Shown here one piece after another: positions 3,804 to 60,788 of a stretch of DNA of 64,000 nt (position 1 is its first letter; the number at the start of each line of letters is the position of its first letter). The translations under genes and the position numbers were made by a program. The notes under the pieces were generated by a model. The model ran no database searches. It saw only the letters and a program-made list of their open reading frames with translations, and had not been told where the DNA came from. The stretch is from a virus. Location: the IMG/VR virus record IMGVR_UViG_3300043411_000715, positions 5,492-69,491 of that record; one strand, written 5' to 3'.

Positions 3804-6800
3804 GTGGACATGACCAACCCCTGGGAACAAGACTGGAGCGGCGCCGCGCCGCAGGCGAACGACAAAGCCCCTTGGGAGCAGGATTGGGGCAAGCCGTCCG
3901 ATGTGACCAAAGGCGGCGTGCTGGATACCGTGCGCGACTACACCCTGGCGGGCCTGAGCAAGGCGGGCCAAGGCAGTATGCAGGCGATCGCCGGCATGGC
4001 CGATACCGTGTCGGCGCCGGTGGCCAAGACGCGCGCCATGCTGACGGGCGCGGCGGCGCTGGCCGATCGCTGGCTCCCGGGCGACATCAACCCAACGTTG
4101 CAGGAGTTGGCGCAGGATGACGCCGCCGCGGCCGAGGCCAAGGCCCAGCAGAACGCCCTGAACAACCCGCTGGCGCGTGGGACGATGGCGTTGCGCGACG
4201 CCGCGCGCGAGCGCGGTCAGATGCTTCAGGACTTCGACAAGGAGTTCAACCCGGAGTTGGTGCGCCAGGAAGGGGAGATGTCCAAGGCGCAGGGCTTTTG
4301 GGAGAACGCCAAGGCCATCAAGGACAACCCGCTGGCGTTCTATGGCAACCTGATGCAATCGGCCCCTGCCATGGCGACCGGCATCGGGATGAGCAGCGGG
4401 GCCGCGCGCGCTGCTGGCGCGCTCGGCAAGGTTGCCGGCATGAGCGACGAGGCCGCGCTGGCGCTGGCCACGCGCAGCGCTGGCGCTGTCGGCACAGCTT
4501 CGGAGGCGGCGCTGTCTGGCAGTCAGGCGCGCGAGGGCATCCGATCCAACATCCTTGCAACGCCACATGCGCAGCTTGCCGAAAATTCGCCGCGCTATCA
4601 GGAGTTGATGTCGCAACCCGGCATGACGCCAGCGCTGGCGCGCGACACGCTGGCCAACGAGGTGAGCACGTCGGCGTCCTTGCTGACATCGGCGGCAACC
4701 GCGCTGGGATCGACTGTCACCAACCGGGTGTTCGGCAACCTGGAAGCGCAAATGATCGCCGGCAACAAGTTGGGCGCCAAGGACGCGCTGCTCAAGATGC
4801 CGGCCAAGGAAACGGCCGAGGAATCCGCCCAGGGGATGGGCGAGGACTATGTGCAGCATCGGGCGATGTTGCCGGCCGACAAGACCAACGCCTACGACCC
4901 GGGTGGCTCGTTTGTGCAGAACGCTGCGGCCGGCCTGGCCATGTCCGGGCCTGGGTCGGTGGGCGGCTACGCGCGCCAGCAGTACAACGCCTCGCGCGGG
5001 CTGAACCCGGACGGAACCAAGCCGGCGACCCCGCCTGCCGCGCCGCCGGCCGACGTGGCCATGGACATTCGATTCCCTGATGGCACGGTATCCAAAGACC
5101 CCGCTGGCGGCGCGTTCGACTACGCCAGGTATGACCAGTACCGCACAGCGCTGGAATCTGGCGGCCGGGCCGATGCCAAGAACCCGAACAGCTCGGCCAC
5201 CGGCCTGCACCAGTTCACCGAGGGCACGTGGCTGGCGATGGTCGAAAAAGCCAAGCCGGCCTGGGCCGAAGGCCTGAGCCGCGACCAAATTTTGGCCGCG
5301 CGTACCGATGCTGGCAAGTCCACCGAAATGGTGCGCGTGCTGGACAGCGAGAATTCCGCGCGCCTGCGGGCGGCCGGGCAGCCGGTGAACGAGCACACCC
5401 TGTACGCGGCGCACCACTTCGGCTCCGGCCGGGCCATCGACTTTGCCAAGGCGGGCGACGACGCGTTGATGAGCAACATCTTGTCGCCGTCGCAGATGCG
5501 GGCGAACCCGTACCTGGAAGGTCTGACCAAGGCGCAGGCGATTGCCAACTGGGACAGCCGCGCGGGCGGCGCGGCGCCCGCGGCAAGCCCAGCGACAAAG
5601 CCGGCGGCCGAAAGCGACATCGCCAGCACCGAAACCGACGCCGCGGCCGAGGCCCTACAGCCGCGCGAGGCCGCGGACGTGGACAAGGTGTCCGCGCTGG
5701 ACAAGCAGGCCCAGGCGCTGCAAAGCCGCTGGAACGACCTGAACAAGCCCGAGTACGGCCCCGCCTTCGACACCGAGCGGGCCGATTTGCAAAGCCAGAT
5801 CGCGGCGCTGCGCGGCGAGCGTGACCAGCTGGCCCGCGACTGGCCCAAACCCGAGTACGGCCACCCCACCAGCTTCGCCACCGAATCCGGCGTGCGGCTG
5901 GATGGCCGCTATGCGCTCGTGGATGCCGATGCGCTGGTGACCAGCCACAACTCGCTGCTGAACAAGAACGGCGCCTACCCGCAGGAGCTGCAGCCGCGCG
6001 AGCGTGACCGCGCCGCCAGCGAAGCGCAGATTTCGGGCATCGTCAACAAACTTGACCCGGCCCGCCTGGGCATGAGTGCGGATGCCGCCACTGGCGCGCC
6101 GATCATCGGCGCCGACGGCGTGGTGGAGTCGGGCAACGCCCGCACGATCGCCCTGATGCGCGCCTACGAGGCCAACGGCCAGAAGGCGGCCGAGTACCGC
6201 CAGTTCCTGAGCGACAACGCCAACCAGTTCGGCCTGAGCGCTGAGCAGGTGGGGGCGCTGAAGAACCCGGTGCTGGTGCGCGTGCGCGACACACCCGTGG
6301 ATCGTGCCGAGTTCGCGCGCCAGGCCAACGCCAGCACGGTGGCCGCCATGTCGCCGTCGGAGCAGGCGCGCTCGGACGCGCAGCGCATCGACAACATGGA
6401 GGACTTGACGCCCAACGACGATGGCGACTTTGCCACCTCGCGCGACTTCATCCGCCGCTTCATGGCGCGCCTGCCGATGACCGAGCAGGCCGGCATGGTG
6501 GATTCGTCGGGCGCGCTGTCCACGGCGGGCTACGCGCGCGTGCGCAATGCCGTTCTGGCCAAGGCCTACGGCGATTCGCCGGTGTTGCAGCGCCTGACCG
6601 AAAGCATGGACGACAACCTGCGCAACATCAGCAAGGCGCTGGTGATGGCGGCGCCCGAGGTGGCAAAAATGCGCAGCGCGATCGACGCGGGCGCGCGCTT
6701 CGACGTGGACATCACCCCTGACCTGATGGCTGCCGTGACCGAGCTGTCGCGCCTGAAAGACGCCGGCACCAGCGTGCAGGACGCCATCGCGCAGGTCGGC

Positions 6801-9800
6801 ATGTTCGGCGAATACTCGACCGAGGTCCGCGATCTGCTGCAATTCCTGGCCGACAACATCCGCCGGCCGCGGCGCATTGCCGATTTCGTGCGCGCCTACT
6901 ATGCTGCGCTGGATCAGGCCGGCGACCCCAACCAAGGCTCGCTCCTGGGCGAGAAGCAGCCGCCCGCCAAGGGCGATCTGATGACTGCCGCGCGCCAGGA
7001 CGCGCAAGGAGAACTGCTCGATGGCAATCCCGCAACCGCAACCCGATCCGCAGCAGATGCAGCGGGCGATCAAGGCCGTGCGCAAGCTGGCCCTGAAGGT
7101 CGAGTCCAGCGCCCGGATGAAGCGCGCCGTGGCCATGGCGATCAAGTCGATGGGCCTGCCCGATCCGAAGCCGCAGTAGACAAGCAGCCGTCGCCGACCG
7201 GTCAATGGCGCACCTTCCCGCCCGACATGGGCAGCCTGGGCATTCCGCGCGCCGAGATGCCGCAGATCAAGGGCGAGCATCGGGGAGCATTCATCCAGTT
7301 CCTGAAGGGCCGCGGCATCGAGGCCAGCGAGCAGCACGAGGTTGACGCTGCCAAACTCAAGCCGACGCAGGCCGAGTTCTCCATGGCCAAGGTCGAGGGG
7401 TTCCTGAAGAAGGGGCTCGGATCGGGTCGCTCCGTTCTGGTGTCGTCCGATGGCTACGTGCTGGACGGACACCACCAGTGGATGGCGCACGCCGTCGCCA
7501 ACCAGGACATCCCGGTCATCACCCTGAACGCGCCGATGCGTGAGCTGCTGGCGGTGGCGCACGAGTTCCCGAGTGTGCAGCGCAGCGAAGGCGCGGCCAA
7601 CGACCCGAACGCCAGCCGGCGCGAAGCGGTGCAGGACTTCAAGGCCGCCATGGCCGATCTGGCCGACATCGCCACCAAGTGGCAGCGCGCGGCCCTGGTG
7701 CCCGAGAAGGACGCCGATCTGATGCCAGTGCTGGCGCGGCTGTTCGATGCCGCCATCCGCATCGTGGGCACCGATCTGAAGGCGGCCACGCGCTGGGTGA
7801 AGGACCAGCTGCGCGCGAACCCGGCAACCAAGAAGCTGGTCAACAAGGTCGAGCCGATGAGCTTTCGCAAGGCGGCCGAGCAGGCGCTGGAGGCCATGAG
7901 CGAGCCACCGGCCCAGGGCGGGCTGTTCGACAGCCCGGAGCAGGCCAGCGAGGCGGTGCAGGGCGACATGTTCGGTCTGCCCGAGGCGCGGCCCTATGCG
8001 CAGTTGAGCGCGGACGAAAAGGCGGCGTTTGATCGGCGGCAGGGCATTCGAGCGTCGGATCGTGGGCGCGTCAGCGCGGCGAACTACGACACGGCGCGCG
8101 ACAACTACAGCCCGCCGGCGGTCGAATCGTTCATGCCCAAGGAGGCGCTGGCGGCGGCCGACAAGGTGATTGCCGAGCATCAGCCGGAAAAACGAAATGA
8201 TGCAGCGCCTGCGCTTAGTGTCGAAGATCGCGCACGCGCCGAGTCTTTGCTGGCACCGGTTCTGGCGAAGGCGGCCGAAGCGAAGGCTGAGTTCGATCAG
8301 AAAGTGATCGACATCGCCCAGCGCGTCGGAGCGCTGGGGCAGCAGTTGGCGCCTCTCAAGGGCCTGAAGCGCGGTGCCGAGAAGCTGGTCGAGGAAAAAT
8401 TCGACGTCGGTGGCATGAAGGACTTGCTGCGTTCGACGATCGTGGTGCGCAGCTACGCCGATGCCCAGGCCGTGGTGGATGCGATCGAGAGTGAGTTCAA
8501 GCTGCTGCGCGCGCCCAAGAACCGCACGGGCGACGTGCCGCTACGCGCCCAAGGCGAGGATGTGGCTCCAGAAGACCCGGCGAAGTACGCCGGCTACAGC
8601 GACATCATGGTCAACGTGGTGATGCCCAACGGCACGATCGCGGAAATCCAGATCAACACCCCCGACATGTTGGCCGCCAAGGGCGCGCAGGGGCACAAGC
8701 TATATGAGGTGCTTCGCGCTGAACCGAAAGGTAGCGCGACGTTTGACGTGGTGAATGCGGCGAGCCTGGCGTTTTACGCCGAGGCGCGGGCTGCGGCGAG
8801 AAATTCCTCTTCGGTCATGCGAGACCAGTCGGCTGGCCAGAACCCGTTGGCGGGTTTGAGCCCTTCCCAGGGGGCTTTCTCGTCAAGCCAGAACCGCTTG
8901 CCGTCCGGGAACTCGACATACGACCGCTCGATGCCGTCGCCGTCGGCGCGATCCATGCCGAAAACGCAGCCGGGCGGGAATTTGTCAGGGACTTTCATGG
9001 GTTCCTCCGATGCCTCCATTGTACCCGGCCAGGGCGCGGGACGCAGCGCCACTAGTGCAGCCGCGCAACAAAGTCAAGCGCAAAATCGCGCCTCGCGCAA
9101 CAATTCGCAGAACGACCTGTTTGGAGCCCAAGATGCCAGTGCTGAAGGAAACCGTCCGCCGGGCGATGCAGGCGCAGGCGCCGCAGCTGTACCGGCAACT
9201 GGAGCGCAGCGGCAAGCTGGCCAGCTTCGTGAAGGAGCAGGCGGACGCGCTGAACGCGGAAATCCACGACGCGGTGATGCAGCGGATGATGGAGCCCGAC
9301 ATGCAGGCGCTGCCCGATCTGGAGCGGCCCAAGCGGGCCGCGGCGCTGGATCAGGCGCACACCGAAATCGCGCTCGCGCAGATGGCGTTCCCGTCAGCCG
9401 AGACATCCCCGCCAAGTCCGGGCGAAACTACAGCTTCTCAGGCCCCGACGACCTGAGCTACACCGGCTCGTGGGCGAAGAAGGCCGAGGCCAACGTCGCC
9501 GCCGTCGAGCTGCTGCGCGACCTCATCGCCGACAAGCGCCAGGCCACGCCCGATGAACAGGCCGTGCTGGCCAAGTTCGTCGGCTGGGGCGCGTCGGAGC
9601 TGGCCAACAACCTGTTCGGCGACAAGCTGAACGCTCCGGCCCAGGCGCTGCGCGAGTACGAATCAGCCAGCAAGGAAATGGACAAGCTGGGCCGTGGCTC
9701 GTTGTCCAAGGGCGGACAGTACCGCGGCCAATATGCCGACCCGGGCTATTACCAGGCGGTGGGCGTGTTGCGCGCGGCGGGCAAAGTCGCCCCGCACGAG

Positions 9801-12800
9801 TTCCCGCCGAGCGTGACGCGGGCGCAGTTGGACGCGGCCAAGCCGGACGCGGGCGTGCAACGCTGGATCGCCCTGCGCGATCGCCTGAAGGTGGCGATGA
9901 CGCCGACTGAGTGGAAGGAAGCCGCGCGCACCACGCAGTACGGCCACTACACCAGCAAGGCGGTGGTGCAGTCCATGTGGGCGGCCATGCAGCGCATGGG
10001 CTTCAAGGGCGGCGCGGTGCTGGAGCCGGGCGCCGGCATTGGCGTGTTCCCGGGCCTGATGCCGGCCGACGTGGCGGCCAATTCGACCTACACCGGCATC
10101 GAGTACGACACCTTCACCGGCAACGTGCTCAAGCAGCTGATGCCCGACGAGCGCATCGTCATCGACGGCTATCAGAACGTGGCGCTGCCCAAGGACTTCT
10201 ACGACGTGGCGATCGGCAACCCGCCGTTCGCCTCGATGTCGGTGCTGAACGACAACGAGTACAAGCGCAACGCCTTCAAGCTGCACGACTACTTCTTTGC
10301 CAAGACGATCGATCGCGTAAAGCCGGGCGGCCTGATGGCCTTCGTCACCAGCCGCTACACCATGGACAAGCTGGACGACAAGGCGCGGGCCTACCTGGCC
10401 GAGCGCGCCGATCTGGTGGGCGCCATCCGCATGCCGCAAACGGCGTTCAAGCAGAACGCGGGCACCGAGGTGGTCACCGACGTGCTGTTTCTGCGCAAGA
10501 AGGTGCCGGGCGAAGTCTTCGAGCACGCGCAGCCCTGGGCCAAGTCCACGCCGATGCAGGTGGACGGCGAGAGTTACCCGGTCAACGAGTATTTCCACGC
10601 GCACCCCGAGATGGTGTTGGGCACGCACAGCAGCCGGGGCAGCATGCGGGCGGCCAACGAATACACGGTGCTGCCGGGCGAGGGCGACATCGAAGCCGCT
10701 TTTGCCAAGGCTGCGGCCACCTTGCCGGCCGACGTGTACCGCGCCGAGATCGGCAGCGCCGCGCAGGCCGCGCAGGTGCGCGAGATCGACTTCAATCCGA
10801 CGGCGAAGAAGGAAGGCAACTTCTACGTCACCGACAAGGGCGTGCTGATGCAGCGCGAAGGCGGCGCCGGCCTGCGCGTCGAGGGCTTGAAGCCGGCCGA
10901 CGAGGCGATCGTGAAGGCCTATGTGCCCCTGCGCGACGCCGTGAAGCAGGCCCAGTATGACCAGCTCAATGGTGGGCCTTGGGAGCAGTCCCTGGCCGCG
11001 CTGCAGGCGGCCTACAAGGCGTTCACCGACAAGCACGGCCCGCTGTTGCAGGCCAAGGCCTACACCGTCACGACGACCGAAACCGACCCGGAAACCGGCG
11101 AGGCGGTGAAGGTCAAGGACACCCGCTATCGGCACCCGCTGGAGGCGTTGCTGCGCTCCGACCCGGACGCCTACCTGACGCTGGCGCTGGAGCGCTTCAA
11201 CGAGGAAACCGGCCAGATCACGACCACGGACGCGCTCACCAAGCGCGTGCTGGAGGCGCCTGTGCACGCGCGGGTCGAGACGGTGCACGACGCGCTGCTA
11301 ACCTCGCTCAATGACCTGGGGCGGGTGGACATCGCGGCCGTGGCCCATGCCGTCGGCCTGTCGCAGAAGGACGCGATCGAGGCCATGGGCACGGCGATCT
11401 ACCAAGACCCGAGCGCGGGCTGGCAGATGGCTGACGAATACCTGTCGGGCAACGTGAAGAAGAAGCTGGCCGAGGCGCGCGCCGCGGCGCAGTCGGACGC
11501 CCGCTACGAGCGCAACGTTGCCGCGCTGGAAGCGGCGCAGCCGGCCCCGAAGACCCCGGCCGACATCAACGTCGGGCTGGGCATGAACTGGGTTCCGGCG
11601 CCGTTCTACGAACAGTTCCTGCACGACCTGGCCGGCACGACCGTGAGGGTCAACTTCAACACGGCGACGCGCGAATGGTCGGTGGAGAAGGTCGATGGAC
11701 ACAAGACCCCGGCGGCCATTGCCGACTGGGGCACGGGTGACCGCGACATTGCCGATTTGCTGGTGCACGCGCTCAAGGGCACGCCGATCGACATCTCGCG
11801 CACCGAGATCGCCGACGGCAGCAAGAAGACCGTGAAGGATCACGCGGCCACCGAGGCCGCGAACGAAAAACTCAAGGCGCTGCGTGAGCGGTTTGAGGGC
11901 TGGGTGTGGGAGAACCCCGAGCGCTCGGACAAGCTGGTGCAGCTGTACAACGACAAGTTCAACACCACGGTGCCGCGCCGCTTCGACGGCCGCCATCTGA
12001 CGCTGCCGGGCACGACCAGCACGGTCACGGTGTTCGATCACGTCAAGCGCGGGGCCTGGCGCATCATCCAGTCGGGCAACACCTATCTGGCCCACGCCGT
12101 TGGATCGGGCAAGACCTGGCAAATGGTGATCAGCGCCATGGAGCAAAAGCGCCTGGGGCTGATCAAGAAGCCCATGTTCGTGGTGCCCAACCACATGCTG
12201 CAGCAGTTCGCGTCGGAGTGGATGCAGCTGTACCCGGCCGCGCGCCTGATGGTGGCCGACGAGGAGAACTTTCACACCAACAACCGCCGCCGCTTCGTGT
12301 CGCGCGTGGCGCTGTCCGACCTGGACGGGGTGATCATCACCCAGTCGGCATTCAAGATTCTTGACCTGGCCCCCGAGTTCAAGGCCAAGATCATCCAGGA
12401 GCAGCTTGACCAGCTGGAGGCCTCGCTGCACGATGCCGATCCGAGCCTCAAGCCGGGGCAGAAGTCGCGCGATCCGACGGTCAAGCAGATTCAGGCCAAG
12501 ATCGAGAAGCTGGAAACCCGGCTGCAGGCGGCCATGTCGAGCGAGGGCAAGGACAAGAACGTCATGTTCGACGAGCTGGGCGTGGACATGCTGTACGTCG
12601 ATGAGGCGCACGGCTACCGCAAGCTGGACTACGCCACCTCGCGCAAGGTCAAGGGCCTGAGCAGCGACGGCAGCGCCATGGCCTTGGACATGTACGCCAA
12701 GGTGCGCTACCTTGCCGAGAAGAACCCCAAGCGCAATCTGGTGATGGCCTCGGGAACGCCCATCACCAACACGATCGCCGAGCTGTACAGCCTGCAGCGC

Positions 12801-15800
12801 TTCATGGCGCCCGAAGGCCTGGAGGAGCGCGGGCTGACCGACTTCGATTCCTGGGCCGCGCAGTACGGCCGCGAGGTGACGGCGCTGGAGGCCGGGGCCG
12901 ATGGCAAGTATTCCCCGGTGACGCGCTTTCAGCGCTTCGTGAACGTGGGCGACCTGACGATGGCGTTTCGCCAGTTCGCCGACGTGCTGACGGCCGATGA
13001 CTTGGCCGCGATCCTGGGCGACAAGCGGCCCAAGGTGAACACGGGCGCGCGCCAGTTGCTGCTGACGCCCAAGACCGATGGCTACCACGAGTACCAGAAG
13101 GTGCTGGCCGAGCGCACCGAGGCCTCGCGCAAGTGGCGTCCCAGCAAGGACGAGCCCAACAACCCCGACCCGATCATTGCCATCATCGGCGACGGCCGCC
13201 TGGCGGCGATCGACACGCGCTTTGTGACCCCGGGCGCGGGAAACGACCCGCAGTCCAAACTCAATCAGATGATCGACAAGCTGGTCGAGCGCTACAAGGA
13301 AACCGCGGTCAACACCTACATCGACAAGAAGACCGGCCAGCCCGAGCCCTTGAAGGGCGGCACGATGATGGTGTTCTCGGACATCGGCTTTGGCGATGGC
13401 GTTCGCCTGAACCGTGGCTTCGACACGCGCGCCTGGGTGAACAAGCGCCTGGCCGAGGCCGGCGTGGATATGAAGCAGGTCGCCTACATGAGCGACTACA
13501 AGGCGTCGGCGGACAAGCTCAAGCTGTTTCGCGACGTGAACGCCGGCAAGATTCGCATCCTGTTCGGCACGTCGAAGAACATGGGCACCGGCGTGAACGC
13601 GCAGCAGCGCCTGACGACGATCTTCCACCTGGACCCGACCTGGTATCCGGCCGACATCGAGCAGCGCGAGGGCCGCGCCGTGCGCCAGGGCAACAAGAAC
13701 CCGTCGGTCGATCTGTACGCCTTTGCCACCAAGGGCACCTACGACCAGAACATGTGGCAGATGATCGCCCGCAAGGCCGCGTTCATCGACCAGATCATGA
13801 CGGGCGACGGCAGCATCAACGAGGTCGAGGACGTGGATTCCGAGTCGAACTACTCGGTGCTGGCGGCGATGGTGGCCGACGATCCGCGCGTGCTGGAGCT
13901 GGCCGGGCAGGAAAACGAGGTCAAGCGCCTGGAGCGCCTGTATCAGGCCCACGAGACGCAGCGCCAGTCGTTCATCGACCGCTACCGGCAGGCCGAGTGG
14001 GCCGTCCAGGGTGCCGAGAAGTCCCTTCCTGCCGCCGAGGCCGCGGCCAAGAAGGCGCGCGACCTGAGCGGGGACAACTTCACGGCCAAGGTGGGCAAAG
14101 CCACCATCACCGAGCGCGCGAAGTTCGGTGAGGCGTTGATCGGCCAACTCAACGAATTGTCCGGGCGCGTGGTGACCGAACCTACGCCCGTGGGTGAGAT
14201 TGGCGGCATGCCGCTGGTGTTCCACGGCTCCAAGGTGGGCTCCGCGTTCAGCGCCTGGATCGAGCTGCAGGCCGGCGAGCCGATGAATCTCGTGTCCAAC
14301 CCGGGCGAGTCCCCGGCCGGCATCGCCATGCGCGCACAAAACGCCGTGGCCGCGGTGGCGCGCCGCCCCGACAAGCTGCGCGAGCGCATCGCCGAGCAGA
14401 AGGCGGTCATGGAGTCGATCAAGGATCGGCGCCAGGCGCCGTTCCCGATGGCGCAAATGCTGACGGACGCCCGCGCGCAGGTGCAGAGCCTGAAAGCCAC
14501 GCTGGCCGCCGAGGGCGCCGCCCAGGCCGAGCCGGCCGCCAACGTCCCAACGATGTCGCGGGGCGTGGCCGAGCAGGACGGCGCAGGCGTGAAGCTGGCC
14601 GACGTGCAAGCCATGGCCGATCGCGTGGCCGCGGCGCTGCCCAAGCTGCCGGGCGTCGAGGTGCTGCAGTCCACCCAGGATGCACCGCCGGCCCTGCTTG
14701 CCTACCTGGAGCAGCAGGGCGCCATGGATGACACCGAGGGCGCTTTCCACGACGGCAGCATCTACCTGTTCGCGGGCAACCTGGCAAGCATGGAGCGCGC
14801 CGAGCACGTGCTGGCCACGCACGAGGCGGGGCACGCCGGCCTGGCCGCGATCCTGGGCGCTGACCGCGCGCGGGTGATGCAGTCGCTGCTGAACCTGAAC
14901 GACGACCTGAACCGCCGCGCAAACGCCGTGGCCAAGCGCCTGAAGGTGCCGGTCACCACGGCCGTCGAGGAACTGCTGGTCGATGTGCCGCCGGCCGATC
15001 TGGTCAAGCTCAAGGGCTGGCGCCGGGTGGCCCACAAGGTGCAGCAATGGCTGGCGCGTTCGGGCTTCACGGCGCTGGCCGCTCGCATGGGCCGCTGGCT
15101 GGAGAGTCGGCTGTCAGACCAGCAGAAGGCGGACCTGCTGGCGGCCGAGCTGATGACGGCCGCGCGCGAGCACCTGGCCGGACGCAAGCCGGCCGTGCGC
15201 AGCATGGCCGCGGACGCACAGCAGCAATCCCGGTGGCTGAACAAGCAGGCCGCCCAGCGGGGCTACGAGAATGCCGACGCCATGGCGCTGGCCGACTTCG
15301 ACGGCCTGGAATCGCTGATGGCGCAGTGGCGCGGCAAGAACCCGGCGGCGGCGATGCTGGCGCGTCGCATCGTGCGCGACGGCTACCGCACGGTGAACGA
15401 TTCGGTGATCCCGGAGACGCCCGAGTACGATGGCAACTTGACGGGCGATCTGGCGCAAGTGCCCGCAGGCAAGACTGTCAAGGCGGGGCCGATTCGCCTA
15501 CCTGTTGGAGTTGCTGAGGGCGCGCATCGCGGACTTGGCATCGAGCACATGGCCGACAACACCAGACGCGACGCCACGCGCATGCCGAAAAAACAAACGG
15601 GAGACCTGGCCGAAGACCTGGTGCGGCAGGCGGTGGAAGTGCTGCGCGGAGTGAAAGAGGTTCACTACGACGGCAGCAAGTTCATATTCCCGAACCCGCT
15701 GATGAAGCAAGCCGTGGTGGCTGTGTGGCGTGGCGATCACTATTCGATCACGACCGTGCGACCGTACCGCAACGCTCAGAACTTGTGGGGGAATCCGGAG

Positions 15801-18800
15801 AAGGTGGGGCGCCTAACCTTCCCCACCCGTGACGCTGAAGCCACGTCACCTTCAATTGCTGTCGCCAAGGAATCTTCGCTTCACCCTGACCGCTTCGGGC
15901 TAGAAGTAGCCTCCGAACGCTTCGATTTTAACACCGACAAGCCAAAACCAGCAACTCAGGTTGTTGTCAAAAAGAAGCGGTCGATCCAGGTTCCTGATGG
16001 CGCGCCGCGCCTGAGCCGCGCCGGGGCGTTGCCATCGGCCGCTGCCGGCCAGCAGGCCCAGTTGACCCCGGCCGATCGTGCTGAGGTGCTGATCCAGAAG
16101 TCCGCCCGCACCGCGCAACCGCTGGACGCGGTGGCTCAGGCAATCACGCGCGCCACGGGCGTGGAATGGGCCGCCAAGAAGGTGGGCAGCGTCATCGCGG
16201 GCGCTCTGAACCGCTACACGCCCGAGTCGGTCAAGGCCGGGCTGGTCAGTGACTACGGGCTCGATCCGCGCGTGCGCGACGAGCGTGTGCTGATGCAGGC
16301 GCGCCAGCAGGTGCAGCTGCGCAAGGCCGGCGAGATGATCGACAGTCTGGCCAGCCTGACGCGCGAGGAGTCGGCGGCGGCCTACCGCTGGATGAACGAA
16401 ACCGACCCCGACAAGATCATCCGTGGCATGGACGAGCTGCCCGAAGGCAGCGCGGAGAAGCTGCAGGAAATCCAGCGCGTGATCGACAAGTTGTCGCAAG
16501 AGGCGGTGGACCTGGGCCAGCTGGATCAGCGCAGCTACGAGCGCAACAAGTTCGCCTACCTGCACCGCAGCTATGCCAAGCATGTGCTGGAGCCCAAGGG
16601 CGCGAAGGCGGCGCGGGCGCGCACCGTGGCCATCCTGGGCAACCAGTACAAGGGCCGCGGTACGACCGAAACCGTCGCCATGTCCATGGTGCGACAGACG
16701 GCGCCTGAGTGGTGGGACGTGGCGCGCAAGGCCGGTAAGGCCGATCCCAACCTGATCGGCAAGAAGCTGACGCGCTACGATCGCCTGGCGCCAAGCGGTG
16801 CCGGCACGCAGACGCTGCCGGGCATGGATGGGCGCAGCGATGGCCGGGTGCTGGAAACCGTGTACCTGCCGGCCGATCGCGCGGCGCCGAAGCAGTATGC
16901 CGAGTGGCGCAAGGGGGCCACCTTCGAGGTGCGCGATGTCAAGCGCGGCGACTTGACGCTATGGCGCGACTGGACCGCCGATGAGCGCCAGAAGATGGGC
17001 GAGATCGACGAGGCGCGCTTTGCCATCGCCAAGACCCTGCACGGCATGATTCGTGATGTCGAGGTCGGTCGGTTCTTGGGCTGGCTGTCGCGCACGCAGG
17101 CCAAGCCCACCGAAGCCCAATTGCCGGCCGGCGCGTCCATCGTGGATGCGTCGGAAAGCCTGCTACGCGCCTTCAAGCCGGGCGAATGGGTGAAGGTGCC
17201 CGAGACCACCATCGCTGGTACGGCGGTGAAGAAGTACGGCGAGCTGGCCGGAAAGTACGTCGAAGGGCCGGTGTGGAACGAGGTGCGCCAGGCGCTGCAC
17301 ACGGCGCAGGGCTTCGGCAAGGTGTACGGGGCCATCCTCAACGCCTGGAAGCTGTCAAAAACTGCGTTGTCGCCCACGGTTCACATGAACAACATCATGT
17401 CGAACTTTGTGATGGCCGACTGGCACGACGTGACGGCCGGGCACGTGGCCAAGGCGCTGCGGATCATCATGGGCGCCCACGATTCGACCAGTGTGCAGGG
17501 GATCATCGGTCTGGCTGGCAAGGGGATGAAGGCCGCCGCCGGCATGGCTGACCAGGACGCCGCGCGCGAGCTGGTGAAGCGCTACAAGGATTCCGGCGCC
17601 GAACTGGGCTCGTTTGTGGTCAACGAAACCATGAAGGCGCAGGTCGATCCGTTGCTGGCCGCCATGGAAGCCGAGCTGCGGGCCGATCCGAACTCGACGG
17701 CCGCGCAGGTTGGCGTCATGTCGGCCCTGCAACTGTTGCGCCAAGGCGAGGTGGGCGCAGCGGCGAAGGCGGCGGCCGGCGCGCAGGGCGTGCGTCAGGT
17801 GATCCGCGAGGGCGGGAACATGATCGACCTGTACCAGTCGGAGGACTCGGTGTTTCGCCTGGCGTCCTGGCTCAAGGCCAAGGAGGAAGGCAAGACCGAC
17901 ATTGAGGCCGGTCGGATCGCTCGCCATTCGTTCATGGACTACAACATCAACGCGCCCTGGGTGCAGGCGGCGCGCAAGACGGTGCTGCCGTTCATCTCGT
18001 ACACCTACCGCGCCGCGCCGATGCTGGCCGACATCGCCATGAACAAGCCGCACAAGATTCTGAAGTTGATGGCCGTGGCCGGGGCGATCGACCTGCTTGG
18101 ATCGCTGCTGGCAGGCGGCGGCGCGGACGACGACAAGGTGCGCAAGCTGCTGCCCAAGGAGAAGGCCGGCGGCGTGTGGGGCATGGTGCCCAAGTTGATC
18201 CGCATGCCGTGGAACGACAACAACGGCTCACCGGTGTTCCTGGACATCCGGCGCTGGGTGCCTATGGGCGACGTGTTCGACCTTGGTCAAGGCCACGCAG
18301 CCCTGCCGATTCCGCCGTCCCTGATGCCGGGCGGCCCGCTGGCGTTGGCTGGCGAGTTGATCGCCAACAAGTCGCAGTTCACCGGCAAACCGATTGTGCT
18401 GGAAACCGACACGGCCGGGCAAAAGGCCGGCAAGGTGGCTGATTTCGTGTACAAGTGGGCGGCGCCGAACGTGCTGGGCCTGCCTGGCAGCTACGCCACC
18501 ACCGGTGTGATCGACGCCGCCAAGGGTCGCACGGACGCCTTCGGGCGCGAGCGCAGCGTGGCCCAGGCCATCGCCTCGTCGATTGGCGTGAAGGCGGCAA
18601 GCTACCCGCGCGACATCCTGGAGCGCAACATCATCCTGGAGTCCAAGGGCAAGCAGGCCGAGTTGGAGCGCGGCATGCGGCAACTGGCGCGGCAGCGGTC
18701 AACGAACGCGATCAGCGACGCCGAGTTCGAGCGGGCCATTGGGGTGGAGCAGGGCAAACTGCGCAAGCTGCGGGAGGAGACGCAGGAGCGGCTGGAGGCT

Positions 18801-18815
18801 GGTCGGACGCACTGA
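3804..18815 (+). CDS. darB: Giant (5,003 aa) DarB-like polyvalent protein: SLT/lysozyme-like, ddrB-ParB-like, ParB-like, RelA/SpoT-like NTase, N6-adenine MTase, SNF2 helicase, HExxH metallopeptidase-like, PBECR-like RNase, LPD38-like C-terminus
   Basis: ESGG..A.NPNSSATGLHQF (~5150); ESGNARTIAL (~6130); LDGHHQW (~7460); KDLLRSTIVV/GYSDIMVNV/AEIQINT (8420-8660); VLEPGAGIG and NPPF (10020, 10220); AHAVGSGKT and VDEAH (12090, 12600); HEAGH (14820); GLGIEHM (15530). Confidence 0.9.
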   Translation: MDMTNPWEQDWSGAAPQANDKAPWEQDWGKPSDVTKGGVLDTVRDYTLAGLSKAGQGSMQAIAGMADTVSAPVAKTRAMLTGAAALADRWLPGDINPTLQELAQDDAAAAEAKAQQNALNNPLARGTMALRDAARERGQMLQDFDKEFNPELVRQEGEMSKAQGFWENAKAIKDNPLAFYGNLMQSAPAMATGIGMSSGAARAAGALGKVAGMSDEAALALATRSAGAVGTASEAALSGSQAREGIRSNILATPHAQLAENSPRYQELMSQPGMTPALARDTLANEVSTSASLLTSAATALGSTVTNRVFGNLEAQMIAGNKLGAKDALLKMPAKETAEESAQGMGEDYVQHRAMLPADKTNAYDPGGSFVQNAAAGLAMSGPGSVGGYARQQYNASRGLNPDGTKPATPPAAPPADVAMDIRFPDGTVSKDPAGGAFDYARYDQYRTALESGGRADAKNPNSSATGLHQFTEGTWLAMVEKAKPAWAEGLSRDQILAARTDAGKSTEMVRVLDSENSARLRAAGQPVNEHTLYAAHHFGSGRAIDFAKAGDDALMSNILSPSQMRANPYLEGLTKAQAIANWDSRAGGAAPAASPATKPAAESDIASTETDAAAEALQPREAADVDKVSALDKQAQALQSRWNDLNKPEYGPAFDTERADLQSQIAALRGERDQLARDWPKPEYGHPTSFATESGVRLDGRYALVDADALVTSHNSLLNKNGAYPQELQPRERDRAASEAQISGIVNKLDPARLGMSADAATGAPIIGADGVVESGNARTIALMRAYEANGQKAAEYRQFLSDNANQFGLSAEQVGALKNPVLVRVRDTPVDRAEFARQANASTVAAMSPSEQARSDAQRIDNMEDLTPNDDGDFATSRDFIRRFMARLPMTEQAGMVDSSGALSTAGYARVRNAVLAKAYGDSPVLQRLTESMDDNLRNISKALVMAAPEVAKMRSAIDAGARFDVDITPDLMAAVTELSRLKDAGTSVQDAIAQVGMFGEYSTEVRDLLQFLADNIRRPRRIADFVRAYYAALDQAGDPNQGSLLGEKQPPAKGDLMTAARQDAQGELLDGNPATATRSAADAAGDQGRAQAGPEGRVQRPDEARRGHGDQVDGPARSEAAVDKQPSPTGQWRTFPPDMGSLGIPRAEMPQIKGEHRGAFIQFLKGRGIEASEQHEVDAAKLKPTQAEFSMAKVEGFLKKGLGSGRSVLVSSDGYVLDGHHQWMAHAVANQDIPVITLNAPMRELLAVAHEFPSVQRSEGAANDPNASRREAVQDFKAAMADLADIATKWQRAALVPEKDADLMPVLARLFDAAIRIVGTDLKAATRWVKDQLRANPATKKLVNKVEPMSFRKAAEQALEAMSEPPAQGGLFDSPEQASEAVQGDMFGLPEARPYAQLSADEKAAFDRRQGIRASDRGRVSAANYDTARDNYSPPAVESFMPKEALAAADKVIAEHQPEKRNDAAPALSVEDRARAESLLAPVLAKAAEAKAEFDQKVIDIAQRVGALGQQLAPLKGLKRGAEKLVEEKFDVGGMKDLLRSTIVVRSYADAQAVVDAIESEFKLLRAPKNRTGDVPLRAQGEDVAPEDPAKYAGYSDIMVNVVMPNGTIAEIQINTPDMLAAKGAQGHKLYEVLRAEPKGSATFDVVNAASLAFYAEARAAARNSSSVMRDQSAGQNPLAGLSPSQGAFSSSQNRLPSGNSTYDRSMPSPSARSMPKTQPGGNLSGTFMGSSDASIVPGQGAGRSATSAAAQQSQAQNRASRNNSQNDLFGAQDASAEGNRPPGDAGAGAAAVPATGAQRQAGQLREGAGGRAERGNPRRGDAADDGARHAGAARSGAAQAGRGAGSGAHRNRARADGVPVSRDIPAKSGRNYSFSGPDDLSYTGSWAKKAEANVAAVELLRDLIADKRQATPDEQAVLAKFVGWGASELANNLFGDKLNAPAQALREYESASKEMDKLGRGSLSKGGQYRGQYADPGYYQAVGVLRAAGKVAPHEFPPSVTRAQLDAAKPDAGVQRWIALRDRLKVAMTPTEWKEAARTTQYGHYTSKAVVQSMWAAMQRMGFKGGAVLEPGAGIGVFPGLMPADVAANSTYTGIEYDTFTGNVLKQLMPDERIVIDGYQNVALPKDFYDVAIGNPPFASMSVLNDNEYKRNAFKLHDYFFAKTIDRVKPGGLMAFVTSRYTMDKLDDKARAYLAERADLVGAIRMPQTAFKQNAGTEVVTDVLFLRKKVPGEVFEHAQPWAKSTPMQVDGESYPVNEYFHAHPEMVLGTHSSRGSMRAANEYTVLPGEGDIEAAFAKAAATLPADVYRAEIGSAAQAAQVREIDFNPTAKKEGNFYVTDKGVLMQREGGAGLRVEGLKPADEAIVKAYVPLRDAVKQAQYDQLNGGPWEQSLAALQAAYKAFTDKHGPLLQAKAYTVTTTETDPETGEAVKVKDTRYRHPLEALLRSDPDAYLTLALERFNEETGQITTTDALTKRVLEAPVHARVETVHDALLTSLNDLGRVDIAAVAHAVGLSQKDAIEAMGTAIYQDPSAGWQMADEYLSGNVKKKLAEARAAAQSDARYERNVAALEAAQPAPKTPADINVGLGMNWVPAPFYEQFLHDLAGTTVRVNFNTATREWSVEKVDGHKTPAAIADWGTGDRDIADLLVHALKGTPIDISRTEIADGSKKTVKDHAATEAANEKLKALRERFEGWVWENPERSDKLVQLYNDKFNTTVPRRFDGRHLTLPGTTSTVTVFDHVKRGAWRIIQSGNTYLAHAVGSGKTWQMVISAMEQKRLGLIKKPMFVVPNHMLQQFASEWMQLYPAARLMVADEENFHTNNRRRFVSRVALSDLDGVIITQSAFKILDLAPEFKAKIIQEQLDQLEASLHDADPSLKPGQKSRDPTVKQIQAKIEKLETRLQAAMSSEGKDKNVMFDELGVDMLYVDEAHGYRKLDYATSRKVKGLSSDGSAMALDMYAKVRYLAEKNPKRNLVMASGTPITNTIAELYSLQRFMAPEGLEERGLTDFDSWAAQYGREVTALEAGADGKYSPVTRFQRFVNVGDLTMAFRQFADVLTADDLAAILGDKRPKVNTGARQLLLTPKTDGYHEYQKVLAERTEASRKWRPSKDEPNNPDPIIAIIGDGRLAAIDTRFVTPGAGNDPQSKLNQMIDKLVERYKETAVNTYIDKKTGQPEPLKGGTMMVFSDIGFGDGVRLNRGFDTRAWVNKRLAEAGVDMKQVAYMSDYKASADKLKLFRDVNAGKIRILFGTSKNMGTGVNAQQRLTTIFHLDPTWYPADIEQREGRAVRQGNKNPSVDLYAFATKGTYDQNMWQMIARKAAFIDQIMTGDGSINEVEDVDSESNYSVLAAMVADDPRVLELAGQENEVKRLERLYQAHETQRQSFIDRYRQAEWAVQGAEKSLPAAEAAAKKARDLSGDNFTAKVGKATITERAKFGEALIGQLNELSGRVVTEPTPVGEIGGMPLVFHGSKVGSAFSAWIELQAGEPMNLVSNPGESPAGIAMRAQNAVAAVARRPDKLRERIAEQKAVMESIKDRRQAPFPMAQMLTDARAQVQSLKATLAAEGAAQAEPAANVPTMSRGVAEQDGAGVKLADVQAMADRVAAALPKLPGVEVLQSTQDAPPALLAYLEQQGAMDDTEGAFHDGSIYLFAGNLASMERAEHVLATHEAGHAGLAAILGADRARVMQSLLNLNDDLNRRANAVAKRLKVPVTTAVEELLVDVPPADLVKLKGWRRVAHKVQQWLARSGFTALAARMGRWLESRLSDQQKADLLAAELMTAAREHLAGRKPAVRSMAADAQQQSRWLNKQAAQRGYENADAMALADFDGLESLMAQWRGKNPAAAMLARRIVRDGYRTVNDSVIPETPEYDGNLTGDLAQVPAGKTVKAGPIRLPVGVAEGAHRGLGIEHMADNTRRDATRMPKKQTGDLAEDLVRQAVEVLRGVKEVHYDGSKFIFPNPLMKQAVVAVWRGDHYSITTVRPYRNAQNLWGNPEKVGRLTFPTRDAEATSPSIAVAKESSLHPDRFGLEVASERFDFNTDKPKPATQVVVKKKRSIQVPDGAPRLSRAGALPSAAAGQQAQLTPADRAEVLIQKSARTAQPLDAVAQAITRATGVEWAAKKVGSVIAGALNRYTPESVKAGLVSDYGLDPRVRDERVLMQARQQVQLRKAGEMIDSLASLTREESAAAYRWMNETDPDKIIRGMDELPEGSAEKLQEIQRVIDKLSQEAVDLGQLDQRSYERNKFAYLHRSYAKHVLEPKGAKAARARTVAILGNQYKGRGTTETVAMSMVRQTAPEWWDVARKAGKADPNLIGKKLTRYDRLAPSGAGTQTLPGMDGRSDGRVLETVYLPADRAAPKQYAEWRKGATFEVRDVKRGDLTLWRDWTADERQKMGEIDEARFAIAKTLHGMIRDVEVGRFLGWLSRTQAKPTEAQLPAGASIVDASESLLRAFKPGEWVKVPETTIAGTAVKKYGELAGKYVEGPVWNEVRQALHTAQGFGKVYGAILNAWKLSKTALSPTVHMNNIMSNFVMADWHDVTAGHVAKALRIIMGAHDSTSVQGIIGLAGKGMKAAAGMADQDAARELVKRYKDSGAELGSFVVNETMKAQVDPLLAAMEAELRADPNSTAAQVGVMSALQLLRQGEVGAAAKAAAGAQGVRQVIREGGNMIDLYQSEDSVFRLASWLKAKEEGKTDIEAGRIARHSFMDYNINAPWVQAARKTVLPFISYTYRAAPMLADIAMNKPHKILKLMAVAGAIDLLGSLLAGGGADDDKVRKLLPKEKAGGVWGMVPKLIRMPWNDNNGSPVFLDIRRWVPMGDVFDLGQGHAALPIPPSLMPGGPLALAGELIANKSQFTGKPIVLETDTAGQKAGKVADFVYKWAAPNVLGLPGSYATTGVIDAAKGRTDAFGRERSVAQAIASSIGVKAASYPRDILERNIILESKGKQAELERGMRQLARQRSTNAISDAEFERAIGVEQGKLRKLREETQERLEAGRTH
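7021..7179 (+). CDS. Nested 52-aa ORF in the +1 frame of the giant gene (MAIPQPQPDPQQMQRAIKAVRKLALKVESSARMKRAVAMAIKSMGLPDPKPQ)
   Basis: AAGGAG shortly upstream of ATG 7021; codons mostly G/C-ending in this frame while the giant frame reads as an atypical linker; too short for the ORF track. Confidence 0.6.
   Translation: MAIPQPQPDPQQMQRAIKAVRKLALKVESSARMKRAVAMAIKSMGLPDPKPQ
8774..8998 (-). CDS. Nested antisense 74-aa protein (MKVPDKFPPGCVFGMD...EEEFLAAARASA) after the RelA/SpoT-like domain
   Basis: GGAGGA RBS (9003-9008) and TACAAT -10 (9018-9023) on the minus strand; globular aromatic/acidic composition; giant frame is Ser-rich here. Confidence 0.7.
   Translation of the reverse strand: MKVPDKFPPGCVFGMDRADGDGIERSYVEFPDGKRFWLDEKAPWEGLKPANGFWPADWSRMTEEEFLAAARASA
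9133..9456 (+). CDS. Nested 107-aa +1-frame protein, TnpV-reminiscent helical protein
   Basis: GGAG at 9123-9126; GC3-rich codons in this frame; 'PQLYRQLERSGKLASFV' resembles TnpV by eye; giant frame is R/G/A low-complexity here. Confidence 0.7.
   Translation: MPVLKETVRRAMQAQAPQLYRQLERSGKLASFVKEQADALNAEIHDAVMQRMMEPDMQALPDLERPKRAAALDQAHTEIALAQMAFPSAETSPPSPGETTASQAPTT
15797..15918 (-). ncRNA. Candidate antisense structured small RNA downstream of the PBECR-like domain
   Basis: Minus-strand TTGCTG-N18-TAAAAT with extended TG (15954-15925), three hairpins, last one GGTGGGG/CCCCACC; no evident ORF. Confidence 0.4.
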
Positions 18816-25331: not shown

Positions 25332-26324
25332 TCAGGCGAAGCTGGCTTGGGTGTCTTCGTAGATTGCGGTGAGTTCCTGCCGATGCTGCGGGTTCTCGAC
25401 CGCGCCGATCAGGGTGGCGATCTCGTCCAGCTCATCCAAGTTGGCGGCGTTTTGCAGGCGCCCGGCCAGGCCGGCATAGGTGACGGTGGGCGCGGCCTCG
25501 GTCTTTGGCTGCACGTCCTGGACTTCATCGGCGGGCGGCACGGCCTTGACGGACAGCAGCCGGGCTTTCTGCTCTTCAGTGAAGGGCTCGCCTCGGGTGG
25601 CGGCGAAGTCGATGTAGTCCTTGGCGCTCTTGCGGCCCTGCTGGATGGTTTCAGCCCACTTTGGCAGGTTGTGGTCGAACTTGGCGGGGTCGTAGAACTT
25701 GACCGGTGCGGGTGCTGGCTGCACCACGTCAGCCGGCCCCATGTGCTTCTCGGTCGCATCAACGATGCGCTCGGCCTCGTCCTGGTCGTAGATGCCGCCA
25801 TAGCCGAAGGCCAGGCGAGCGCACTGGATCATGGACTTGTGACGCAGGAAACGCTTGGTGTGCGTCTGCCAGGGGCCGGTCACCTCGCCGTACTTGCCCT
25901 TGAAGGGCGCGCGGTACACCTCGTCCAGGTATTCGCGCACCACAATGGGCCGGCTGCGGTCCTTGCGGTAGATGTGGCACTCGATCCACTCGGGCGCTGG
26001 CTTGCCACCGGGCATCGTCACAAGTTTGTCGGCGTGGTGAAACTCGATGCCGTCGAACTGAGGATGCGAGTTGATGATGCGGCTCCAGCCGTCCACCCCG
26101 ACCACGGGCACGATGCCGTTGTTCTTGTCGGGGAAGGCATAGATTTCCTTCGTCCAGGGGTTGAGGCCGTACTGATTGGCCACCACCAGCAGCGCGGTCA
26201 TTTGCGCGTCGGTCACTTCGCCCTTGAAGGCGGTGGCCTTTAGGGTTTCAATCAGACCTTCGCCGTCGCCCATGTCGAGTTTGGTGGCGAGGGTTTGGGT
26301 GAGGGTGGTGAGGGCGTTGGTCAT
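25332..26324 (-). CDS. bet: Phage recombination protein Bet (lambda-like ssDNA annealing protein)
   Basis: 'LVVANQYGLNPWTKEIYAFPDK..GIVPVVGVDGWSRIIN.HPQFDG', 'RFLRHK..IQCARLAFG'. Confidence 0.92.
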   Translation of the reverse strand: MTNALTTLTQTLATKLDMGDGEGLIETLKATAFKGEVTDAQMTALLVVANQYGLNPWTKEIYAFPDKNNGIVPVVGVDGWSRIINSHPQFDGIEFHHADKLVTMPGGKPAPEWIECHIYRKDRSRPIVVREYLDEVYRAPFKGKYGEVTGPWQTHTKRFLRHKSMIQCARLAFGYGGIYDQDEAERIVDATEKHMGPADVVQPAPAPVKFYDPAKFDHNLPKWAETIQQGRKSAKDYIDFAATRGEPFTEEQKARLLSVKAVPPADEVQDVQPKTEAAPTVTYAGLAGRLQNAANLDELDEIATLIGAVENPQHRQELTAIYEDTQASFA

Positions 26325-26337
26325 GATGTTTCCTTGG

Positions 26338-26550
26338 TCATTTGTGCCCACTGGCCGCCAGCAGCGCCAGCGCCTGGGCTTGGTGGATTTTGGCCCGAGC
26401 CTGTTGCTGGGCGTCGCGCAGGTCGGCGGCGGTGTCCTGCAGCGCCTCGGTGTCGCTGGGGCCGGGCATCAGCCACATCCCCAGCACAAACGCCAGCACG
26501 CACAGAATCAGGGTGAGCCAGACGGCCCAGTGGTCGGCGCGCTCGGTCAT
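26338..26550 (-). CDS. Small membrane protein (paralog of 60582-60788)
   Basis: One TM segment; near-identical copy in early region 2. Confidence 0.7.
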   Translation of the reverse strand: MTERADHWAVWLTLILCVLAFVLGMWLMPGPSDTEALQDTAADLRDAQQQARAKIHQAQALALLAASGHK

Positions 26551-56969: not shown

Positions 56970-57208
56970 TTGATCAGCTCCGTGCGTTCAAAAAAATTGC
57001 AGCCGTCCCAGTCGGGTGGCGGCTCTGCTGGGCGCAGCAGGCCGTGAGCAAGAGCAATGTCTTGCAACTCACCGCCATCAATGCCGCCTTCGGGCCAGGC
57101 CTGCATCACCTCTTTTGTAAATGCGAGCAGTTGGTCGCGCTGCGCCGTGACGCATTGCTTGCAGTCGCATGCCGGGTCGTGACCATGAATGCCGGCGTCA
57201 GCGGTCAT
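56966..57208 (-). CDS. Hypothetical protein
   Basis: 'IDGGELQDIALAHGLL' module; GGAGG RBS. Confidence 0.65.
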   Translation of the reverse strand: MTADAGIHGHDPACDCKQCVTAQRDQLLAFTKEVMQAWPEGGIDGGELQDIALAHGLLRPAEPPPDWDGCNFFERTELIK

Positions 57209-59043: not shown

Positions 59044-59546
59044 TTCGTTGCTCCGTGGTTTGCGTGGAATCCAAGGCCATCTTCTGCCTTGATCCTCGCG
59101 TGGCGCGCATCGGACAGGCTTTTGAAATAACCGATGTGCCTGGTCTTTCTCTCGCTTCTGACCTGTACGCACCATGCTTTTGCGTGCGGCGCCCAGTGCA
59201 CGCCGTTGATGCCGGATTTATTCCTTGAGTCGCGTGACCTGTTCTTTCTATTTCCAGACCTGGTAACCAACCTCAGGTTTTGAATCCTGTTGTTGGATGG
59301 GTTGTGGTCGATATGGTCTATTTCCATATCATCAGGAATTTGGCCTACAGCGAACATCCACGCGAGACGGTGCGCGTAGTGCCGTTCAGCATTGATCGTG
59401 ATTGACACGTACCCATCCGAGCGCGTGCACCCAGCTTCCGCCCCGGCGCGCGCCGAGCGCCCTTTTTTGTTTACAAGCCAAGTGAAACGGCCAGACGTTG
59501 CGTCGTATGAAAGCGCTGTTCTGATGTGATCCATATCTATCGCCAT
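59040..59546 (-). CDS. HNH homing endonuclease (HNH-AP2-like) between bet and exo
   Basis: 'AHRLAW...IDHIDHNPSNNRIQNLR', 'GFHANHG'; absent at the equivalent site in copy 1. Confidence 0.9.
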   Translation of the reverse strand: MAIDMDHIRTALSYDATSGRFTWLVNKKGRSARAGAEAGCTRSDGYVSITINAERHYAHRLAWMFAVGQIPDDMEIDHIDHNPSNNRIQNLRLVTRSGNRKNRSRDSRNKSGINGVHWAPHAKAWCVQVRSERKTRHIGYFKSLSDARHARIKAEDGLGFHANHGATK

Positions 59547-60565: not shown

Positions 60566-60581
60566 GGTTTTCCTCGTTTGG

Positions 60582-60788
60582 TCATTTGTGCCCACTGGCC
60601 GCCAGCAGCGCCAGCGCCTGGGCTTGGTGGATTTCGGCGCGCGCCTGCTGCGGGGCTTCTTGCAAATCGGCAGCGGTGTCCTGCGCGGCTTCGGTTTCGC
60701 TGGGGCCGGGCATGAAAACCACGCTCAGCACAAACGCCAGCACGCACAGGATCAAGGTGAGCCAGACGGCCCAGTGGTCACGGCTCAT
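60582..60788 (-). CDS. Small membrane protein
   Basis: Paralog of 26338-26550. Confidence 0.7.
   Translation of the reverse strand: MSRDHWAVWLTLILCVLAFVLSVVFMPGPSETEAAQDTAADLQEAPQQARAEIHQAQALALLAASGHK

Follow-up and report, generated by a model that had tools for sequence, protein, structure and literature searches.

A predicted antisense small RNA gene nested in frame within a linker of a giant phage polyvalent protein gene

Does the strand opposite one short part of a giant phage gene carry a gene of its own, and what would its product do? The question arises from a window of 64,000 nucleotides (nt), by which we mean the whole stretch of DNA that was analyzed (positions 5,492 to 69,491 of the IMG/VR virus record IMGVR_UViG_3300043411_000715, which has 69,491 bases and is complete according to CheckV). 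At 15470–15960 of this window, a sequence-only reading had noticed a nuclease-like domain, followed on the minus strand by a promoter and a structured RNA of ~120 nt in a stretch without an evident open reading frame (ORF). The supposed lack of an ORF has to be given up, since 15470–15960 lies wholly inside a single open frame of 5003 aa (3804–18815, plus strand), which encodes motifs common to 15 other giant proteins. The antisense elements fared better. Comparison of relatives shows a unit of ~190 bp, consisting of a predicted promoter and a predicted structured RNA on the minus strand, that is nested in frame within a linker of the giant gene, and the aligned sequences make it very probable that a small RNA gene exists here. 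The features of the window by themselves do not go beyond chance; the case is carried by the relatives.

These relatives share a protein module, described below, whose DNA was read for nine loci from ~7 lineages (the window, L007, L002, L009, L011, L003, L005, L031, and L156). Two further loci were left out of the alignments A3 and A5, namely L008, which represents the same region as L002, and L010, which is near-identical to L009, while L006, L178, and L032 served as hold-outs. A3 is a plain MAFFT alignment of the nine minus strands and was not fitted to any structure. From it, RNAalifold predicted 35 pairs in five helices, of which P1 closes the structure and P2/P2a, H2, and H3 make up its three arms. 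In A3, 88.5% of 314 alignment cells are paired, compared to 38–52% when the partners are slid by one to three columns; double changes occur at 22 pairs and covariation scores 0.544, where the slid controls have 8–13 and 0.10–0.17, and not one of 500 shuffles attains any of the observed measures. A codon-threaded alignment likewise retains H3 (15803–15827) and H2 (15829–15849) with compensatory changes. Three of the covarying pairs join two third-codon positions and are paired in all nine loci: 15914/15797, which occurs as GC, CG, UA, and AU; 15917/15794, which occurs as CG and UA; and 15806/15824 within H3, which occurs as G-C, U-A, C-G, and A-U. Protein constraint cannot explain pairs of this kind. 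The structured minus-strand RNA of the sequence-only reading is thereby supported, with compensatory changes and a length of ~120–130 nt.

The predicted RNA measures ~126 nt from the first to the last pair of P1 (15918 to 15793, minus strand), and the corresponding covariance-model match extends from 15920 to 15790. According to RNAalifold and the pair counts, the 5' strand of P1 (GUUCGGAGG, 15910–15918) pairs with its 3' strand (UCUCCGGAU, 15793–15801) in nine pairs, six to seven of which show double changes. The first arm occupies 15850–15906, where P2 (15906–15903 with 15853–15850; 94% of cells paired) encloses P2a (15890–15884 with 15870–15864), the weakest helix with 71% of cells paired (83% in the alignment A6, see below). 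It is followed by the hairpin H2 (15829–15849), whose GUGACG and CGUCAC strands (15849–15844 with 15834–15829) form six pairs with 92.6% of cells paired and double changes at four pairs, and by H3 (15802–15828; 15828–15818 with 15811–15802), in which 97.5% of cells are paired and the top, GGGAAGGUNAGGCGCCC, is nearly invariant. All three hairpins of the sequence-only reading are present in the window, and two of them, GTGACG/CGTCAC (15829–15849) and GGTGGGG/CCCCACC (15803–15827), correspond to H2 and H3. The other one (TTCG..GGCTA-cttc-TAGCC.GAA, 15894–15917) does not hold as drawn: distant relatives keep only zero to three of its five inner pairs, and its 5' half belongs to P1 and its loop to P2. 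A pseudoknot between loop and junction (CUA/UAG) was considered as well, but fits only ~7 of 10 sequences by eye and is not claimed.

Energy and wobble pairs favor the minus strand as the one on which this structure would form. The minus strand reaches a consensus energy of -36.8 kcal/mol and the plus strand one of -21.1 kcal/mol, with covariation terms of -4.34 and -2.32, respectively, and the plus-strand consensus comprises only 22 pairs compared to 35. Wobble pairs exclusive to the minus strand occupy 38 cells of the minus-derived structure and those exclusive to the plus strand 4, a count that is biased to minus; the plus-derived structure, whose bias is to plus, has A.C or C.A (equivalent to G.U on the minus strand) in 11 cells, as opposed to a single G.U on the plus strand.

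A sigma-70-type antisense promoter at 15954–15925 (minus strand) is also supported by this comparison. In the window, the predicted promoter consists of a -35-like hexamer TTGCTG (15949–15954), which matches TTGACA at three of six positions, an 18-nt spacer, and a -10 hexamer TAAAAT (15925–15930) directly preceded by TGT, exactly as the sequence-only reading had it (TTGCTG-N18-TAAAAT with an extended TG). Among the nine aligned loci, TAnnnT is found in all and a TTG 17–18 nt away from it in eight; in these eight loci, the complete motif TTGnnn-N17/18-TAnnnT ends 6–7 nt before the first P1 pair. The promoter recurs in two held-out copies with the -35-like hexamers TTGCGC (L243) and TTGCTT (L032). 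The loci contain only 1e-4 to 1.4e-3 such relaxed motifs per nt, and the 15-kb ORF holds two of them per strand; its only other matches are at 18599–18628 (minus), 6877–6905 (plus), and 12684–12713 (plus). TAnnnT is retained although the residues encoded on the other strand vary (DFN, NLT, EFN, HTK, and LTL). The one aligned locus without the full motif is L002, in which the gene ends early, just after FDFN. This frame of 422 aa, found in an Ottowia metagenome-assembled genome (MAG; L002:829–2094) and again in a metagenome contig (L008:305–1570), has lost the -35 element of the promoter and may be a broken or remodeled prophage gene.

Further copies were obtained with the covariance model R1 (131 positions, 35 pairs), which finds a single copy in the window with 131.9 bits. 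In L178/L243, another IMG/VR contig, a copy with 75 bits spans the full model length, and all of its pairs are standard, many of them unlike those of the training set. This RNA (L243:1501–1634, minus) has a promoter TTGCGC-N17-TACCAT (~1641–1669, minus) with unchanged spacing to P1, is not accompanied by the module core, and lies antisense to the N-terminal part of an ORF (L243:1425–2381, plus) with two Phage_pRha domains. The copy in the MAG contig L032 (684–814, minus; 76 bits) has the promoter TTGCTT-N17-TAGTAT and likewise no module core; ~6 of its 35 pairs are non-standard, mainly in H2, and it is situated ~117 nt upstream of an ORF on the same strand that encodes 82 aa resembling XRE-like helix-turn-helix (HTH) proteins (319–567, minus). 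On its other strand, a mere remnant of the module tail is left within a 100-aa ORF that begins at the 3' border of the RNA. In both contigs, the similarity is bounded by the promoter on one side and by P1 on the other, and the conserved unit is thus the predicted RNA gene itself. A decayed tail remnant with an 89-aa frame (L006:1546–1679, plus) still matches R1 over the full model length with 31.4 bits, retaining a good -35 and a poor -10 element and containing several non-standard pairs; one frame next to it resembles the C-terminus of a tyrosine integrase. When the copies of L178 and L032 were added, giving the alignment A6, 91.6% of 383 cells were paired and 26 of 35 pairs showed double changes, values that are favorably biased because A6 is fitted to the model.

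No RNA match was found at the expected place in a Bacteroidales locus (L166) that has the core with a different tail, R1 found no RNA in the partial matches L139 and L140, and searches of GenBank phages and plasmids on the DNA and protein levels gave no match. Weak R1 matches of 21–25 bits (L211, L217, and L181) and of 25–29 bits (L039, L066, L077, L071, and L030) are probably due to chance. DNA-pattern matches in L133, L136, L137, L144, L157, and L161–L164 are unrelated chance matches, and L165 is an HsdR-like false positive; the 17-nt motif used for fishing yields 13–20 bits by itself (L133, L136, L137, L192, and L237).

How can such a unit exist inside a translated frame? In the window, the protein and RNA features coincide closely: GRLTFP lies at the top of H3, SERF and NPE at the two strands of P1, and DFN at the -10 element. 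The residues read opposite the 5' strand of P1 are SERF in the module and KTG in L243. As the motifs persist in the nucleotides where the protein context is lost, the motifs of the linker are probably driven at least in part by the RNA, and the apparent protein conservation (GRLTFP, SERF, and DFN) probably reflects in part the RNA gene and its promoter. In the plus frame of the tail, an excess of differences falls on third codon positions (10 of 19 differences to L007 and 26 of 60 to L009), and both codes seem to be under constraint.

The giant protein itself belongs to the phage polyvalent proteins as defined by Iyer et al. (2017; PMC5512222). Of 4194 candidates, 15 giant proteins matched its residues 3860–4080 at E ≤ 0.001. 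Common to them is a module of ~205 aa, equivalent to 15381–15992 of the window, at widely varying positions of the chain; thus, the supposedly non-coding stretch belongs to a portable protein module. Protein alignments divide it into a conserved core (15414–15768, plus; ETPEY..GDLA..HRGxGIEHMADN..YSITTVRPY) and a tail or linker (15769–15992, plus; LWGNPEKVGRLTFP..DRFGLEVASERFDFN..VVVKKKR), which shares its DNA with the RNA gene on the minus strand. The peptide strings quoted by the sequence-only reading (RLPVG..HRGLGIEHM..YSITTVRP) are indeed present in the plus frame. The tail is characterized by the motifs LWGNPEWxGRLTFP, DRxGxEVxSERFDF, and VxVKKKR, and its reading frame is open in all module loci. 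Against 1.84 billion representative proteins, the module profile has 133 members at E ≤ 0.001, 86 at E ≤ 1e-10, and 47 at E ≤ 1e-30. Giant proteins make up most of this set, the stronger matches mostly align through profile positions ~180–200, and roughly 60 of the representatives retain the tail. In sampled genomes, the profile was found in 3 of 401 on the order level and in 3 of 401 on the family level.

The core might be a divergent member of the PBECR-type domains, as the sequence-only reading had proposed when it spoke of a PBECR-like RNase. This identity is plausible from the sequence, yet unproven. In the module, the His of GxGxxH(M/L)xxN is invariant and the S/T of (S/T)V(R/V)P is conserved. 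By sequence, the two residues appear to be placed as in the 2017 description of PBECR, where a long helix follows the invariant His and the last strand-like segment contains the conserved S/T (PMC5512222). In three distant members (P0139, P0141, and P0156), PBECR3 matches the module core below threshold (E 5.5e-5 to 3e-4, 21–23.5 bits compared to a cut-off of 30), and PBECR1 does so in three others (P0045, P0126, and P0144; E 0.1–0.2). However, the module is covered by a Pfam or PHROG family neither in the window nor in eight homologs, window residues 3867–4016 match no Pfam family at E ≤ 10, and none of 12 alignment members matches the PBECR models at E ≤ 1. Comparison of a 114-row module alignment with nine PBECR3 segments above the cut-off by hhalign was not significant (E 0.12), and neither were comparisons with thin sets of PBECR1, 2, and 5 (2–5 rows; E 0.08–0.34), although the alignment to PBECR3 is co-linear, with His on His and last strand on last strand. 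Sequence searches found no relative with a solved structure.

What could the RNA do? OOP of phage lambda is a short RNA that has its own promoter on the opposite strand and overlaps the 3' coding part of cII, not the ribosome site; Krinke and Wulff reportedly dealt with OOP RNA and cII in 1987 and 1990. By analogy, the main role of the RNA predicted here may be to restrain the giant gene as a cis-antisense brake, a reading that we hold tentatively and with somewhat less than even confidence. Transcription would start ~7 nt past the -10 hexamer, at the first base of P1, and would not depend on the late giant gene. The RNA would pair with the giant-gene mRNA, to which its sequence is perfectly complementary, and expose it to double-strand-specific cleavage, and less of a potentially toxic injected protein would be synthesized when it is unwanted. 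Titles listed in PMC5869508 indicate that OOP acts on cII through RNase III. Like OOP, the RNA is located on the opposite strand, has its own predicted promoter, and overlaps a coding part, and the comparison of relatives places that promoter opposite a coding region, as is characteristic of OOP-type cis-antisense RNAs. Unlike OOP, it is longer, has a terminal stem with three arms but no detected terminator, doubles as an in-frame linker in the interior of a 15-kb ORF, and recurs in other host genes. Type I toxin-antitoxin systems such as OrzO/ZorO, where an antisense small RNA base-pairs with the mRNA of a toxic gene and thereby represses this gene (PMC3919570), resemble the proposed mechanism in just this pairing. 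Their toxins are small hydrophobic peptides, in contrast to a host ORF of 5003 aa with an overlap far from its start.

Several points weigh against this proposal, or against the existence of the RNA gene on which it builds. A consensus scan of 14500–17000 found no promoter and no terminator, and relatives in A3 have no U-run after P1 either. Without an intrinsic terminator, the 3' end of the RNA is undefined. The single-sequence minus-strand fold of 15790–15920 is not exceptional (z = -0.94, equaled by 34 of 200 shuffles; the plus strand has z = -0.42). The comparison covers ~7 lineages (7–10 with the added copies), and all loci stem from metagenomes or MAGs. The structure was derived from the very alignment on which its pairs were first counted, and the E-values of the covariance model are rough. 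As to function, an RNA with both ends locked in P1 and with an elaborate junction resembles a protein-binding or stand-alone RNA more than a pairing RNA, intact copies survive the loss of the giant gene (L032 and L006), the L243 copy resides in a different host ORF with Rha domains, and the target lies ~12 kb into a 15-kb message. Taken as a whole, the picture of a self-contained backwards RNA gene within the giant gene that acts on this gene in cis is one on which our judgment is evenly balanced.

If not as a brake, the RNA might serve as an antidote or decoy: the folded RNA would bind the adjoining nuclease-like domain, or be its preferred substrate, and protect the cell that is building virions. 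We regard this as unlikely. The RNA gene does occupy a fixed place 3' of the core in all nine module loci read while the flanking domains differ, most of the stronger profile members span positions ~180–200 so that core and tail usually occur together, a closed multi-arm fold with the invariant single-stranded GGGAAGGUNAGGCGCCC and UAGCCCG would suit protein binding, and the sub-threshold PBECR matches hint at an RNase. On the other hand, intact RNAs with promoters exist without the domain in L178/L243 and L032, distant members have the core without tail or RNA (profile positions 1–140 only, and the Bacteroidales L166), and the nuclease identity is unproven. The idea of an RNA that neutralizes an endoribonuclease is shared with type III toxin-antitoxin systems (ToxI/ToxN, TenpIN, and CptIN; PMC8860590 and PMC5772629). 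There, ToxI consists of an array of tandem repeats that is transcribed together with its toxin and cut by it, whereas here a single copy with its own predicted promoter lies on the opposite strand, and the partner would be one domain of a giant protein with unproven activity. In 15300–16300, Tandem Repeats Finder detected only a 14-nt repeat with 2.1 and a 5-nt repeat with 4.4 copies, neither of them at the RNA. The role as inhibitor, substrate mimic, or guide of the nuclease domain that the sequence-only reading had suggested is unproven, and it is weakened by the missing ToxI-like array and by the RNA copies without the domain. A stronger form of the idea, in which toxic domains of injected polyvalent proteins have their antidote RNA encoded antisense in the linker behind them, as a toxin/RNA-antitoxin cassette at the domain level that moves as one piece between giant genes and protects the virion-producing cell, appears less probable still.

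Alternatively, the RNA may be a trans-acting phage small RNA, e.g., a regulator, a host-takeover factor, or an anti-defense decoy, that is merely parked in a tolerant linker and has no connection to the domain or the host mRNA. That the conserved unit in L243 and L032 is limited to the interval from promoter to P1, with such different neighbors as a Rha-domain ORF and an XRE-like HTH gene, and that RNA motifs such as the 5' strand of P1 are retained despite changed residues (SERF compared to KTG), would fit this well. Yet no target stood out (7 near-matches to the complement of the H3 top occur in the window, with 5.24 expected), no known RNA family matches, and the copies outside the module may be recent deletion remnants; we consider a role in trans improbable too. 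Far less probable is a function of the pairing in the sense mRNA or in single-stranded DNA, for instance in translational pausing at a domain border, processing, or recombination, with a promoter-like site that is incidental. A plus-strand prediction does contain the same helices (22 pairs, of which 13 have double changes), and the site marks a domain border in a mosaic protein family, but energy and wobble counts (38 to 4 and 11 to 1) favor the minus strand and the promoter keeps its distance in eight of nine loci and in the two held-out copies. That no nucleic-acid element exists at all, and the pattern is chance or a by-product of protein coding, is hardly credible, even though the window alone is unremarkable in promoter scan, fold z-score, and Rfam, and GC-rich coding DNA forms many hairpins. 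Against it stand the compensatory changes at synonymous positions, the 500 shuffles without an equal, the much poorer pairing of the slid controls, and the held-out copies that score 75–76 bits with different flanks.

The element is best described as a structured and portable candidate for a cis-encoded antisense small RNA, located in frame in the linker of a polyvalent protein and absent from Rfam 15. A search of this database with 14500–17000 (E ≤ 10) gave nothing at the RNA site; a weak match to gntR-DTE at 15061–15164 (plus; E 1.8; 19.2 bits compared to a gathering score of 63.6) was regarded as chance. ARAGORN found no tRNA or tmRNA genes. A small antisense protein gene downstream of the RNA was rejected, as stop-free stretches vary in frame and place among the nine loci. 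With its invariant His, its conserved S/T, and a typical polyvalent host protein, the module resembles in sequence the PBECR polyvalent proteins described in PMC5512222, but differs in that no PBECR model matches the window domain. In that article, the terms "antisense", "noncoding", and "small RNA" each occur zero times, and among the matches listed in full-text searches on polyvalent proteins, PBECR, and antisense RNA, no such RNA was described, judging by titles and abstracts. If the RNA is made, it would represent a new structured RNA family outside Rfam and a clean case of double coding, in which one strand encodes a protein linker and the other bears a promoter and a folded RNA. Among the "conserved protein motifs" of polyvalent-protein linkers, some might then be footprints of hidden RNA genes, which would bear on annotation and domain splitting, and searches for covarying antisense structures in coding regions could reveal further nested genes. 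It would also offer a testable handle on how phages control or neutralize large injected effectors.

The host gene of the nested RNA gene (3804–18815, plus) was classified as encoding a polyvalent protein from the ORF list, Pfam, and PHROG. Its Pfam matches comprise ddrB-ParB, an Eco57I-type methylase, ResIII/SNF2/Helicase_C, and a weak RelA_SpoT match below the cut-off (8376–8706, E 0.0073, 17 bits). A PHROG match to DarB-like antirestriction proteins lies immediately upstream of 15470–15960, and a gene for an Rz-like spanin directly follows the giant gene. The domain of low GC content seen by the sequence-only reading is real: GC is 0.545–0.625 across 15400–15999 as opposed to ~0.70 on either flank, and the minimum of 150-nt GC in the entire ORF (0.52 at 15834) falls within the region discussed here. 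Upstream of the module, at 14750–14850, an HEAGH motif (MERAEHVLATHEAGHAGL) resembles the site of zincin-type metallopeptidases, with no Pfam match at E ≤ 10. A close homolog of the giant protein, P0004, has a Hom_end match at residues 3625–3689, which suggests an intein in this protein. Elsewhere in the window, the phage encodes two RecT/Bet-like annealing proteins (25335–26351 and 59561–60595, both minus) and a RecE-like exonuclease (57208–59175, minus).

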